Source: an uncultured Candidatus Rokubacteria bacterium
GTDB lineage: Bacteria > Methylomirabilota > Methylomirabilia > Rokubacteriales > CSP1-6
Length of the DNA: 64,000 nucleotides
Direction of reading: 5' to 3'
NCBI GenBank assembly: GCA_963789955.1
Contig: CAWBMV010000012.1
Span: 128,001-192,000, forward strand
The position numbers were made by a program, and so were the translations under genes. Below are positions 3,162 to 21,479 of this stretch, one piece after another (the first letter of the stretch is position 1; every line of letters begins with the position of its first letter). The notes under the pieces are model-generated. The model worked only from the letters and a program-made list of their open reading frames with translations, searched no databases and was not told the origin of the DNA.

Positions 3162-4377
3162 TCAGGTCTTGACGGGCTCGATCACGCCGGCGGCGTGCAG
3201 CGCCGCCAGATCGTCCTTCCCGAGCCCCAGGATGTCCGCGAGCACACGATCGGTGTCCTGACCCAGAAGTGGCGCCGGGCGAGCGACCGCCGGATCGGCG
3301 CCGTGCAGACGGATCGGCGAGATCGGGACTTTCGTCTTCCCGCGCCGCGGGTGGTCGATCTCCTTCCAGACGCCTCGGGCGTTCAGGTGGGGATCGGCGA
3401 CGACCTCGGCGGCCGTGCGCACCGGCGCGCAGGGCACGTGAGCCTCGGTGAGGATCGCCATCACCTCGTTCTTCGAGCGGTCGCGCGTCCACGCCGTCAC
3501 CATCGCGTCGATCTCCTCGACCTTGGCGGCCCGCCCGGGTGTGGTGGCGTAGTCCGGGTGCATGAGCAGATCCTCCCGCCCGAGCACCTTGGTGATGCTC
3601 TCCCAGTGGCGATCGGACGCGGTGAAGATCGCGATGTGGCCGTCACGCGTCTCGTAGACGTTGTAGGGCGCCATCGCGAGCGCGGGATGGCGATTGCCGG
3701 TACGCGCCGGCACCGACGTGTCGCCGTCCATGAAGACGCCGAGCGCGCTGGCGAGCGCGATGATCGCGGCGTCGAGCATCGCGACCTCGACGAACTGGCC
3801 CTGGCCCGTGCGCTCGCGCTGCACGAGCGCGCCGAGGATACCGGCGAAGAGGTGAACGCCGCCGAGGAAGTCGCAGACCGCGGGGCCGGCCTTCACCGGC
3901 GGCCGATCGGGAAATCCGGTCGCGTTCATGATGCCGCTCATCGCCTGGATGGTCAGGTCCATCGCGGGCAGATCGCGGTACGGCCCGGACAGTCCGAAGC
4001 CGGTGCCGCTGCCGTACACGAGCCGCGGGTTCGTCCTTGCGCAGCACCTCCCAGCCGAGACCGAGACGGTTCATCACGCCGGCGGCGAAGTTCTCGACGA
4101 TGACGTCGGCCTTCTTGGCCAGGCTGAGGAAGATCGCCTTGCCGTCGGCGTGCTTCAGGTCGAGCACCACCGATTCCTTGTTGGTGTTGAGCATCACGAG
4201 CGGGTAGGGCTCGACCTGTCGCTTGCGGCGGCGGACGATGTCGCCCTCGGGGCTTTCGATCTTGAGCACGCGGGCCCCCATGAAGCCGAGCAGCAGGCCG
4301 CAGTAGGGCCCGTTGTAGATCTGGCCGAGGTCGAGCACGAGCATGCCCTCGAGCGGGCGGCGGATCGCGGTCGTCAT
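3162..4377 (-). CDS. CaiB/BaiF family (class III) CoA-transferase, frameshifted near 4035
   Basis: PLEGMLVLDL..GP..GARVLKIESPEGD..NTNKESVVLDLK..ENF in one frame; continues as YGSGTGFG..DLTIQAMSG..APLLGQDT in another. Confidence 0.88.
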
Positions 4378-7397: not shown

Positions 7398-8262
7398 ATG
7401 TCCGTCGTCCTCGTTACGGGTAGCAGCACCGGCATCGGCCTCGCCACGGCGCTCCACTTCGGGCGCCTTGGCGACGGAGTGTACGCCGGAGTCCGCAACA
7501 TCGCCACCGCGACCGAGCTCACGAAGGCGATCGAGGCCGAGAAGCTTCCGATCCACCCGATCACGCTCGACGTGGACGACGCAGGGCTCGGTGACCCGCG
7601 CGGTCGGCGAGGTGATTGCCAAGGCCGGCCGCATCGACGTCCTCGTCAACAACGCGGGGATCGGCGGAGGCGGCCCGGTCGAGGACGTGCCGGTCGACTG
7701 GGTGAAGAGCCTCTTCGAGACGAACTACCTCGGCGCCATCCGGATGATCCAGGCCGTCCTGCCCGGGATGCGCGAGCGCCGGAGCGGAGCGATCGTCAAC
7801 GTCAGCTCGATCGCCGGGAGGCTCGCGATCGCCGGGCACGGCCACTATTCGGCCGTGAAGCACGCGCTCGAAGCCATCAGCGAGGCGCTCGCTCAGGAGG
7901 TGCAGGCGTTCGGGATCCGCGTGGCCATCGTCGAGCCCGGCGTGGTCGTGACGCCGATCTTCACGAAGGCCAAGCGTTTCGCCGATCCCGCTTCGCCGTA
8001 CGCGGTTCATGTCCACCGGCTCTTGCTCTTCTATCAGATGCAGATGAAGACGCCGAGCCAGCCGGCCGACGTCGCCCGCGTCATCCACGAGGCGGTGACG
8101 ACGAAAGAGCCCAAGCTCCGCTATCTCGTCGGTGACGACGCGGAGCGACTGGTCGCGGGCCGACGCAAGCTGACCGACGAGGAATACGTGGCGACCGGGC
8201 GCCTGATGCCCGACGCCGAGTATCTCGACCTGATGCGTCGACGCTACGGGTTTGACTGGTAG
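7398..8262 (+). CDS. SDR family oxidoreductase (17beta-HSD-like), frameshifted near 7590
   Basis: MSVVLVTGSSTGIG in one frame; DVLVNNAG, YSAVK and IVEPG in the next. Confidence 0.88.
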
Positions 8263-8296: not shown

Positions 8297-8334
8297 TTAG
8301 GAAAGAGCAGTAAGAGAGCAGTAAGGAGGACGCG

Positions 8335-9976
8335 ATGAACAAAGTCACGGTCCTGAACCCGGTCGGTTTCCCGCCCAAAGTGGTCAAGAAGCCGCTGGCG
8401 CCGCGCCTCGCGACGCTCGAGGGCAAGACGGTCTACCTGGTCGATTGCCGCTTCGACGATTCCGACGTCTTCCTCAAGCAGATGCAGGCGTGGTTCGGCG
8501 AGCACATGCCGGGCGTGCGCACGGTGTTCAAGCCGATCTCGAGCGTCTATCTCAAGGACGACCCCACGACCTGGGAGGAGATCAAGGCGAGGGGGCACGC
8601 CGCGATCGTCGGCGTCGGCCACTGAAGCACCTGCGCGCCGGCGGTCGCCGCGCACGCGATGACGATCGAAGCGCAGTACGGAGTGCCCACCGTCGCCATG
8701 CACACCGACAAGTTCGACCGCGTGGCCCGCAACGTGGCCGCGGTCAACGGCATGTCGGAGCTCCGGCAGGTGTTCGTCCCTCAACCGGTCATGGGCAAGT
8801 CCCCGCGTGAGCTCCGCGCCTACGTCGACGGCAAAGATCCGCTGACCGGGCGCCCCGTGATGCAGGAAGTCATCGAAGGCCTGACCACGCCGTTCGATGG
8901 TCAGGGGGTCGGGACGATCGAGTACGACCGGTCCACGCCGCGGCTGGTCGACGCGGATACCGAGGAGAACCTGCAGCGCCTCTTCATGGAGAGCCGCTGG
9001 ACGGACTACCTGCCGATCGTGCTCCCGACGGAGGAGCGAGTCGCGGCCATGCTGGCGGCGACCCGCCGCAAGCCGGACGAGATCGTCGGGCGCATGCGTC
9101 CGACGCACTTCCGCGAAGCGTGGGAATACACGGTCGAGAAAGTCGCGGTGAACGCGGTGATGTCCGGCGCCCGTCCGGAATATTTCCCGGTGATCCTGGC
9201 GCTGGCGGCGACCGGCGTGAGCGCGCGCGGCAGCACGACCAGCTCGATGGCCGCGATGGCCGTCGTCAACGGCCCGATCCGCAACGAGATCAAGATGAAC
9301 GCGGGGACCGGCGCCCTCGCGCCCTACAACCACGCGAACGCGACGATCGGCCGCGCCTACGGCTTGCTCTCGCAGAATCTGCAGGGCAGCTCGGTGCCCG
9401 GGATCACCTACATGGGCTCCCAGGGCAACAACTACGCGTACAACAGCATCACGTTCCCGGAGAACGAGGAGCGGAGCCCGTGGGAGCCCTTCCACGTCCA
9501 GCACGGCTTCCGCGCGACCGACAGCACCGTGAGCGTGTTCAGCGGCTGTCGCGCGACCGCCTACACGCTCGGTGTTCGCGAGAAGCATTGGCAGGAGCAC
9601 GTCCGCAACATGCTGCGCGGCATGGATCCGCACATTCCCGCCGGTGTTCGTGCTCGATCCGATCACGGCACGCCAGTTCATCGACCGGGGCGGGTTCACC
9701 AAGAAGGACGCGCTGATCGACTGGGTGTACGAGAACGCGCGGATGCCGGCCGGCGAGTTCTGGGACTACCAGCTCGTGCAGAACTACCTCTACCCGCGCG
9801 CGACGTTCGGGGAGGAGCCGTGGGCCTCGAAGCTCAAGGCCGCGCCCGACGAGATGATCCAGATGTTCAAGCGTGAGGACATCCACGTCGTGGTGGTCGG
9901 CGGCGAGACGAATCCCTACTGGCGCATCATGGGCGCGACGTACGCGAAGACCGTCTCGATCGACGACTGGCGGTAG
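8335..9976 (+). CDS. UGSC-family-like selenoprotein (UxxC = U-S-T-C) fused to a C-terminal domain; Sec at 8623-8625; frameshift near 9640
   Basis: ORFs 8335-8625 and 8659-9876 are in the same frame, separated by a single stop (TGA) in GVGH-TGA-STC. A SECIS-like hairpin follows. The TDYLPIVLPTEERV motif resembles the domain that accompanies UGSC proteins. Confidence 0.8.
8632..8654 (+). promoter_or_regulatory. Bacterial SECIS-like element
   Basis: TGCG-(CGC bulge)-CGGC-[GGTC loop]-GCCG-CGCA. The loop lies at +18 to +21 after the UGA. Confidence 0.7.
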
Positions 9977-19288: not shown

Positions 19289-21106
19289 TTACCCCGCGTG
19301 GACCGCGTCGGCCTCGAGCTCGAGCGCGCGGATCGTCTCGGTCGTCGGGACGCCGGTGGCCGGATCCCAGCCCTGCTCGACGTAGTAGTCGGTGACGACC
19401 TTGTCCTGCTGCTCGCGGGTGAGGCCGGCGTGCTTGGGCAGGGGATCGCTGAAGCGCGCGGGCAGGCGGTCGTCGGCGCGCGTCATCCCTTCGCGCAGAT
19501 TGAAAAGGCGCGCGAGCGTGAGCCCGCGATGGGCCATCGTCACCATCTCCTCGGGCGTGATGTCCCAGCCGGTGACCGTCTTGAGGATCTGAAGCGACTG
19601 ATCGTCCTCGTAGGCGAGGAAGTGGCACAGCCCGATCTGATTGCGCAGGCCGTTGCGATTGCTGGTCTGACGCATGTGGTCGCCGCCGGTCGGCGCCAGG
19701 AGATACGACGCGCGCATGACCGGCATGTGACGCGGGTCGTGCATCGCCATCTCCATGCCCTTCACCGTCGTCAGGAGTGCTTCGGAGCCGCGGCCGAGCC
19801 GCTGCGCGGCGCGCTGTGAGCCTTCGGCCAGCAGATCGCCGATGCCTTGCCGATACGCGATCATCTCGACCAGCTTGATGACGCCGTCCGCGTCGTGGAA
19901 GCGGAGTGGTATGCCTCCGGTGTCGTCGAGTGTGAGAATGCCTTTCTCGAAGCATTCCATCGCCCACGCCAGCGTGGCGCCGAGCGACACGGTGTCCATG
20001 GCGAGGTAGTTACACATCTCGTTCGATTTGCAGATAGCGATCAGGTCTTCGAGGCCCAGATTGACGCCCAGGGCGGCCAGCGACTCGTACTCCGGCCCGC
20101 CGTATCGCGGATCGACGCTGTAGCGCCCGAGGGGATCGAACGCCACGCGCGCTCGACCTTTGTAGACATTTTCGGCCGCCGCGCGAGCCGCCTCTTCCTT
20201 CTCCTCGATGTGGACGACCTTCTTGCATCGCACGGAGCACGCGTAACACGCGCCCATCTTGACGCGCACCTGATCGCGCACGGCGATCGCGTCCACCTTG
20301 GCGATGGTGTCGGCGGCCCCCAGGCGATAGTTGAGGACGGGCATCCCGCCCTCGAGGCTCTTGCCCTGCATCGCGGCGCCGGTCCCGAACTCGTGAAAGG
20401 CCCGGTGCTTCTCGTCCATGGTGCCGGACACCCACTTGGCGATCGCCAGAAGCCCGGGCTGATCCGCGATCTTCACCGGGATCTTGCCGCGGACGGCGAT
20501 GGCCTTGAGCCGCTTCGACCCCATCACGGCGCCCATGCCGGTGCGGCCCGCGACCTCGTTCAGTTCGTTGGCGATGCAGGCGAAGCGCACGAGGTTCTCA
20601 CCGGCCGGACCGATCTGCGCGATGCGGATGCGCGGATCGCCGAGCTCGGCGAGAATCGCGTCCTCGACCTCGCCGGTGATCTTGCCCCAGAGATGTGCGG
20701 CGTCGCGGAACTCGACCGCGCCGTCGCTGATCCAGAGATAGACCGGAGTAGGGGAGACGCCGTGGAAGACGATCGCGTCCCAGCCGGCGCGCTTCAGCTC
20801 GGCACCCCAGTACCCGCCCGATTCCGATTCGCCGAAGCCGCCGGTCAGGGGCGACTTGGCGCCGACGCTGTGGCGTCCGGCGCCGGGCACGGGCGCGCCG
20901 GTGAGGACTCCGGGGGCGATCACCAGAATGTTGTCGGGCCCGAGCGGGTCCGCTCCCTTCGGCACGTACTTCAGGAGATAGTGCGCGATGAGCCCGCGTC
21001 CGCCGGCGTATCGGCGGAAGAATGGGTCGCCCGGCTCTTCGATCCAGGTGGTGCGATCGGAGAGATTCACGTGCAGGATCTTGTTCCAGTAGCCGTAGCG
21101 TTCCAT
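19289..21106 (-). CDS. aor: Aldehyde:ferredoxin oxidoreductase family (W-pterin) protein
   Basis: GYWNKILHVNLS, KSPLTGG, IGPAGEN, GRTGMGAVMGSKRLKAI, CYACSVRC, GPEYES and DPR motifs. Confidence 0.92.
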   Translation of the reverse strand: MERYGYWNKILHVNLSDRTTWIEEPGDPFFRRYAGGRGLIAHYLLKYVPKGADPLGPDNILVIAPGVLTGAPVPGAGRHSVGAKSPLTGGFGESESGGYWGAELKRAGWDAIVFHGVSPTPVYLWISDGAVEFRDAAHLWGKITGEVEDAILAELGDPRIRIAQIGPAGENLVRFACIANELNEVAGRTGMGAVMGSKRLKAIAVRGKIPVKIADQPGLLAIAKWVSGTMDEKHRAFHEFGTGAAMQGKSLEGGMPVLNYRLGAADTIAKVDAIAVRDQVRVKMGACYACSVRCKKVVHIEEKEEAARAAAENVYKGRARVAFDPLGRYSVDPRYGGPEYESLAALGVNLGLEDLIAICKSNEMCNYLAMDTVSLGATLAWAMECFEKGILTLDDTGGIPLRFHDADGVIKLVEMIAYRQGIGDLLAEGSQRAAQRLGRGSEALLTTVKGMEMAMHDPRHMPVMRASYLLAPTGGDHMRQTSNRNGLRNQIGLCHFLAYEDDQSLQILKTVTGWDITPEEMVTMAHRGLTLARLFNLREGMTRADDRLPARFSDPLPKHAGLTREQQDKVVTDYYVEQGWDPATGVPTTETIRALELEADAVHAG

Positions 21107-21479
21107 CAAGCGGCTCCCCCTTTATCTTCGTGGTCGCCTCGCCGGGCGCGGCTGCGGCTCCCCCTTCCATCGGCGTGGTCGCCTCGCCGGCGGCGGCTGC
21201 GGCTCCCCCTTCCATCGGACTCAAGAGCATGATCTCGGCGCCTTCGTGTAACGAAGTGTCCCGGGCCGCCTGCTCACCGTTGACCGCGATCGTCAGATCG
21301 GCAGCGGGCGGGACGCCGATCACTGCGAGCAGGTCGTCGACGGTGGCGTGCTCGCGCACGGTGTAGCGCAGCGGCCCGTCGGAGCCGCGCGGTAAGAACC
21401 GGCGGAGGTCGGCGAAGAACGTGACCATCACGGTGATGGTCTGCGTCCCCGCACTCGTCGAGTCTCGAGGCCCGGTCAT
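21106..21479 (-). CDS. MoaD/ThiS family sulfur carrier with a repeat-extended C-terminus
   Basis: VTFFADLRRF..TVDDLL..IAVNGE..SLHEGAEIMLLSPMEGG. There is no stop after the GG. The end coordinate assumes a missing G in the G5 run, which would give a TGA overlapping the aor ATG. Confidence 0.75.
21129..21218 (-). repeat. 45-bp tandem repeat x2 (PMEGGAAAA(A/P)GEATT), plus a partial third copy at 21110-21121
   Basis: Units 21129-21173 and 21174-21218 differ only in the 4-nt hairpin loop. Confidence 0.9.

Follow-up and report, generated by a model that had tools for sequence, protein, structure and literature searches.

A predicted single-chain UGSC-family selenoprotein from Rokubacteria and its candidate kinship with GrdB/PrdB-type selenol reductases

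The gene at 8335–9976 (+) of the window, the 64,000-nucleotide stretch of an uncultured Candidatus Rokubacteria genome analysed here, almost certainly encodes a selenoprotein, in which an in-frame TGA (8623–8625) would specify selenocysteine. It adds no new family, being an H-U-S-T-C subfamily member of a known selenoprotein family, UGSC, with a domain fusion that is already in print. As to function, we favour, at a probability of roughly 0.55 and by analogy with GrdB and PrdB, a reductase that would turn a selenol nucleophile on a small organic substrate. The value of the gene lies in the handle it gives on an old question, as it offers a single-chain version of the protein and a candidate reductase partner.

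Translation would start at ATG 8335, where the ribosome-binding site proposed in the first-pass annotation reads AAGGAGG at 8323–8329 (+), 5 nt upstream; the Met codon at 8659 is preceded by no Shine–Dalgarno-like run, also as had been claimed. The TGA is codon 97, in the context GVGH-U-STCAPAVAAH, and falls within an N-terminal UGSC domain of approximately residues 1–190 (8335–8904, +). A partner domain, Unknown_1, follows at approximately residues 200–546 (8932–9976, +) and bears the motifs WTDxLP, NAVM, VNGP, ANATIGRA and ENEE. The same annotation had the frame running on past the UGA to 9976, and it is indeed open for 416 codons, but it then ends at a TGA (9874–9876): the frame from 8335 is out of register after about residue 435, and the genuine C-terminal 111 residues are encoded by ORF 9572–9976, which closes with TAG at 9974–9976. 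Exactly 449 codons follow the UGA in 16 of 18 relative loci (one other has 447 and one is broken), giving 546 residues, so that the proposed length of ~546 residues holds in relatives while the frame in this assembly is shifted near 9635–9640. Promoter and terminator scans found none, and contigs over parts of the gene in one RNA run fall short of a demonstration of transcription.

A homologue search found Cys at this column in all 95 covering homologues among the best 120 of 7,887 protein matches, and TGA in all 80 of the genome loci compared (the best 80 of 168). These TGA loci span Rokubacteria, Chloroflexota, Binatia, Poribacteria, Latescibacterota and Armatimonadota, and both sets of best matches retain the motif's second Cys without exception (95/95 Cys homologues and 80/80 TGA loci). 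Were the TGA instead a genuine stop separating two proteins, or a miscalled TGC or TGG, such a column would be hard to reconcile with it, and we regard either alternative as extremely improbable. A true stop does find some encouragement in the databases, which contain a 438-residue product starting at Met109 (25 of the best 120 matches), but TGA persists at all 80 best loci across several phyla, full-length homologues carry Cys in 95 of 95 cases, and Met109 lies inside the third helix of the UGSC domain in an AlphaFold2 (AF2) model. The truncated entries bear out the earlier expectation that standard gene callers would split the gene, and they mark a large annotation gap, with 576 database proteins in one cluster representing only the truncated half.

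The host genome (6.77 Mb, 87% complete) was found to hold selA, selB, selC and selD, the set that the first-pass annotation had proposed to look for. The tRNA-Sec gene (selC) is at C1:731972, with selA and selB together with it on contig C1 and selD on C6; profile searches of the genome gave 592, 359 and 304 bits for selA, selB and selD, respectively, all above cut-off. In one of two other TGA-bearing genomes examined, selA also scored above its cut-off. The selD gene is itself apparently a selenoprotein gene, with a stop within its N-terminal CAG-x-ASK motif (G000 C6:164505 region). A tree of Sec and Cys forms (79 rows, FastTree) has the 40 Cys rows all on the same side of a branch supported at 81; the tree is unrooted, its Cys rows come from a Cys query, and 30 of 109 candidate loci had been dropped by length and motif filters.

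Directly after the UGA, where a hairpin had been described, one is found at 8632–8654 (+), overlapping the Cys100 codon (8632–8634). Its 4-bp upper stem carries a 4-nt GGUC loop (8643–8646, or +18 to +21 past the UGA), 17 nt separate it from the UGA, and its energy is −9.2 to −11.9 kcal/mol. These values lie within the bacterial SECIS model quoted in the excerpt of PMC13188914 (loop of 3–9 nt with G among its first two positions, stem of 4–16 bp, 16–37 nt from the UGA, MFE ≤ −7.5). The comparison drawn earlier with the E. coli fdhF SECIS is accurate, with GGUC at +19 there and at +18 here, although the upper stem is shorter than in fdhF or the consensus bacterial model, and an Rfam search returned four chance-level matches, none of them a family at or near the hairpin. 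Hairpin stability does not exceed that of shuffled sequence (z 0.23 to 1.01 in three windows from the UGA), which is what a true stop would lead one to expect; stability alone is therefore no evidence, and the SECIS call has to come from conservation. In 16 relatives synonymous change is absent from codons +4 to +10, where the windows are the lowest of the gene, and this freezing of synonymous sites only just after the TGA argues against termination there. The 14-base core of the hairpin occurs in 78 of 80 TGA loci versus 4 of 50 Cys loci, and the peptide P-A-V is written CCG GCG GTC in 79 of 80 versus 12 of 41, in a Cys/TGA comparison that set aside 27 of 79 metagenome loci not matching the motif pattern. 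Across 31 close TGA loci the hairpin is 97.1% paired, but no pair has changed on both sides and the pairing does no better than in shuffles; RNAalifold favours another lower stem. A set of 19 more distant TGA rows includes 10 in which GGUC recurs at +18 on a 4-bp stem, and in 8 of these, read by eye, the pairing is kept through two-sided changes. By this conservation, the hairpin at 8632–8654 is the predicted SECIS of the gene.

One base more than in all close relatives, at 9635–9640 (+), puts the final 111 codons into another frame. We consider this very probably an assembly indel, because contigs from three of four independent public runs lack the base and because the assembly is rich in such breaks. 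The upstream SDR gene (7399–8262, +) has a one-base excess near 7580–7581 that is likewise absent from contigs of three of the four runs; when 18 rows were set against proteins of the same genus, 5 came out split into two frames, the SDR gene among them, a few rows being antisense shadows; and another of the five, which we take from its motifs to be a CaiB-like CoA-transferase gene (3165–4377, −), lies in two frames relative to intact relatives, a further sign of indels. These features speak against a recent pseudogene in this strain, in which the extra base would be real and the last 111 residues lost. Such a loss would agree with the break in the assembled sequence and with two of 19 relative genomes (G007 and G016) that are also broken, elsewhere in the gene, and we hold it to be quite improbable. 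Separately, an exact 11-bp tandem duplication at 8304–8325 extends into the Shine–Dalgarno sequence, and a contig from run X2 is without ~10 bases at this duplication.

The relationship to the UGSC family that had been suggested, with a variant H-U-S-T-C motif, is borne out by Pfam PF24696, which the N-terminal domain matches at 86.5 bits against a gathering cut-off of 25 (model positions 2–159 of 172). The equivalog NF041046 gives 63.9 bits, below its cut-off of 125, and the gene is not filed under it; the literal U-G-S-C motif is absent here, unlike in the eight other matches of this genome. All nine PF24696 matches in the genome have one TGA each, and two pairs are near-duplicates. Ten further UGSC or partner loci (G000 C1, C3, C4, C6, C8, C13, C19, C22 and C34) adopt three layouts, namely fused, partner then UGSC, and partner alone, and those on C8/C13 and C3/C4 are near-duplicates that perhaps reflect a mixture of strains. 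The fused partner domain claimed for the gene is present and agrees, by eye, with the published Unknown_1 alignment block; the fusion itself was reported by Zhang and Gladyshev in 2008, with a thioredoxin (Trx)-like fold supposed (PMC2398784, Fig. S1A, in excerpt). Where Unknown_1 has a conserved Cys, found in many distant members, the H-U-S-T-C subfamily has Ala. Several of the Cys homologues are already named UGSC family (seleno)protein by NCBI. Excerpts of PMC1976440, PMC9312934 and PMC13188914 give the family without a function, and a literature search lying outside subscription papers and bioRxiv supplements found no functional or structural study of UGSC.

An AF2 model of an intact, 97%-identical relative (pLDDT 96.1, pTM 0.94) folds residues 27–190 into five alternating strand–helix units, with U97 and C100 opening the helix after strand 3. 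The 50 fold-search matches listed are largely receiver, flavodoxin-like or Rossmann-like domains with Z of 8.4–10.7, the best (Z 10.7, rmsd 4.2, 136 residues aligned) not standing out. The N-terminal domain is thus predicted to be flavodoxin-like with a five-stranded β/α fold, at odds with the published Trx-like guess; the excerpt of PMC11229817 adds nothing further on the fold. Profile–profile comparison (hhalign) with the Sec column masked gave probabilities of 83.7% against a GrdB-like set (9 sequences) and 85.9% against a PrdB-like set (13 sequences), with the U-x-x-C motif in register; none of 45 control families taken from this genome exceeded 2.6%. This comparison shows the Sec domain to be a remote homologue of the Sec-bearing region of GrdB/PrdB-like reductases. 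Like GrdB of the glycine, sarcosine and betaine reductases and PrdB of D-proline reductase, the protein joins a Sec domain to a larger partner, but it has no PF07355 (GrdB) match at E ≤ 0.1 and is not filed as a member, its partner is fused and not detectably related to GrdE or PrdA, and Cys forms of the family occur in aerobic Proteobacteria. A sequence search of the PDB found no GrdB structure.

The partner domain, folded alone, is also modelled with confidence (pLDDT 96.7). G, P, N, R and E account for most of its near-invariant residues, and D225, N273, N335, R340 and E376 make up a conserved cluster. Among 48,161 chains the best fold match reached Z 5.5 with nothing clear, which does not in itself prove a new fold, and Foldseek gave no match at E ≤ 0.001; the top-ranked matches, none of them significant, belong to class I fumarate hydratase and to Toblerone-fold amide hydrolases (E of 0.003 or worse, TM ~0.2–0.3). 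Profile comparisons were null against fumarase alpha (probability 0.2%) and against the partner's own non-overlapping parts, and gave no similarity to GrdE/PrdA-like neighbours (0.1%, with a small and partly impure GrdE-like set). Searching the PDB by sequence returned no match with the single protein and four rows at E ≥ 0.24 with a profile, and the ESM Atlas holds only unnamed or auto-named clusters. As there is neither a PF07355 match nor partner similarity to GrdE or PrdA, substrate activation would have to differ from that of GrdB and PrdB.

The gene does sit directly downstream of an SDR, as had been stated, and its other local neighbours are luciferase-like monooxygenase, zinc dehydrogenase, amidohydrolase and carboxymuconolactone-decarboxylase-like genes. 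The SDR was rejected as a functional partner and is no clue to function, because it is directly upstream in only three of the best 80 of 168 loci, all close relatives. Further along the window are what we presume, from their motifs, to be an aldehyde:ferredoxin oxidoreductase-like gene (19289–21109, −) and a MoaD/ThiS-like ORF preceding it (20598–21479, −). Small-molecule transporters and catabolic enzymes recur near the gene (TctC, for instance, in 9 of 79 loci), and the only cross-phylum conserved neighbour found is a thioredoxin reductase (TrxR)-like gene with a CxxC motif. No more than 300 bp separate it from the UGSC gene in 6 of the best 80 of 168 genome loci (from Chloroflexota and Binatia) and in 22 of 79 metagenome loci, counts that are not independent since the metagenome loci include near-duplicates; it is placed in tandem, upstream or convergently.

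These neighbours resemble the low-molecular-weight thioredoxin reductase TrxB, with 275–321 bits to TIGR01292 and a retained CxxC, but they fall below the cut-off of 343, and in a quick tree 32 of 35 group on a branch of their own (SH-aLRT 97), separate from the housekeeping TrxB encoded by the genomes that carry them. In none of the 31 neighbour rows listed does the NADPH motif (as described in an excerpt of PMC8564101) open with HRR, as it does in the TrxB of this genome, so the electron donor of the TrxR-like neighbour may be one other than NADPH. No member of the dedicated clade was found in this genome or in the Rokubacteria searched; a TrxR search gave one match each in 32 of 37 genomes, and the 11 of these included in the tree fall with housekeeping TrxB. 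A thioredoxin motif scan of 34 TrxR-bearing loci, which was a pattern scan and not a family search, returned eight apparently off-frame matches. In some loci a Cys-type and a TGA-type paralogue stand together with TrxR-like genes between or beside them (L212:7001–11398, L213, L202, L227 and L233). One in-frame TGA was also seen in the thioredoxin-reductase matches of three relatives (L271/G049, L294/G038 and G019:C47), possibly a Sec-containing TrxB or a break.

The masked-Sec profile match to GrdB and PrdB, the TrxR-like neighbour, the conserved second Cys and the transporter and catabolic neighbours together lead us to the reductase reading. The product would be one 546-residue cytoplasmic selenoenzyme whose partner domain would bind a small organic electrophile. 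Once bound, this molecule would be attacked by the selenolate of Sec97, which would break a polar bond, of C–N, C–S, C–halogen or heteroatom-oxide type by analogy with GrdB/PrdB, and Cys100 would resolve the adduct to a selenylsulfide. A flavoprotein of thioredoxin-reductase type could then re-reduce the selenylsulfide, a dedicated one where it adjoins the gene, and in Rokubacteria the housekeeping thioredoxin system or another donor. GrdB-type chemistry is described in excerpts of PMC10838667 as nucleophilic attack by Sec on a polar bond, in families that are substrate-specific (GrdB/PrdB chemistry also features in the excerpt of PMC13188914), and the nine UGSC-domain matches of this genome are as expected for an enzyme family split by substrate. 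Against the reductase reading stand the missing PF07355 match and the canonical UGSC paralogues, which reach only 21.7% and 40.4% against the same GrdB-like and PrdB-like sets. The main points against it are that no dedicated reductase was found in Rokubacteria and that some distant members are without Cys.

Approximately half of the distant 50%-cluster representatives covering the Sec column have no Cys there (for example, P0125, P0133 and P0207); the scaffold can therefore exist without the nucleophile, which counts against a reductase. Full-length sequences including P0125, P0133, P0142, P0207 and P0245 have Cys at neither the Sec column nor the resolving position, and the Cys-less members are possibly a non-redox or inactive branch. 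Their existence is what a non-redox enzyme (isomerase, lyase or hydrolase) or a metal or cluster binder would allow, with Sec or Cys as base, transient nucleophile or ligand and catalysis mainly in the partner domain, and the best Foldseek rows of the partner, fumarate hydratase and the amide hydrolases, lean the same way. Those partner matches are weak (Z 5.5, TM ~0.2–0.3, profile probability 0.2%), the partner of this subfamily has no conserved Cys for cluster binding and the TrxR-like neighbour would go unexplained, so that we find this improbable. A general redox-maintenance protein, whether a peroxide, disulfide or sulfoxide reductase or a metal or metalloid detoxifier, strikes us as somewhat unlikely. 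The UxxC motif and the TrxR-like neighbour would suit any thiol-based cycle, the gene context is variable and UGSC has been grouped with Trx-like redox proteins (PMC2398784 and PMC13188914, in excerpt); the predicted fold is flavodoxin-like and not of Trx or peroxiredoxin (Prx) type, a conserved partner of 350 residues and many paralogues per genome suggest specific substrates, and no metal-resistance genes stand out among the recurrent neighbour clusters.

Taking the reductase reading further, we tentatively suggest that UGSC fusions could be a third branch of the GrdB/PrdB selenol reductases, much more widely distributed than the other two, that needs no pyruvoyl proprotein, has a substrate domain of unsolved fold, is recharged directly by its own TrxR-like flavoprotein without thioredoxin and, in bacteria of soil and water, performs an undescribed bond cleavage on organic compounds. 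If true, such a branch would be immediately testable with natural Cys versions from cultured aerobes, and intact Cys homologues are available in cultured Variovorax (P0090), Aquamicrobium (P0087) and Ramlibacter (P0040). Genes more closely akin to the described reductases are also at hand: this genome has two PrdB-like genes in which a stop interrupts a UxxC-type motif, each of them frame-broken in this assembly (L109, G000 C22:52088; L110, C1:590970), and full GrdB/GrdE-like genes occur in several relatives.
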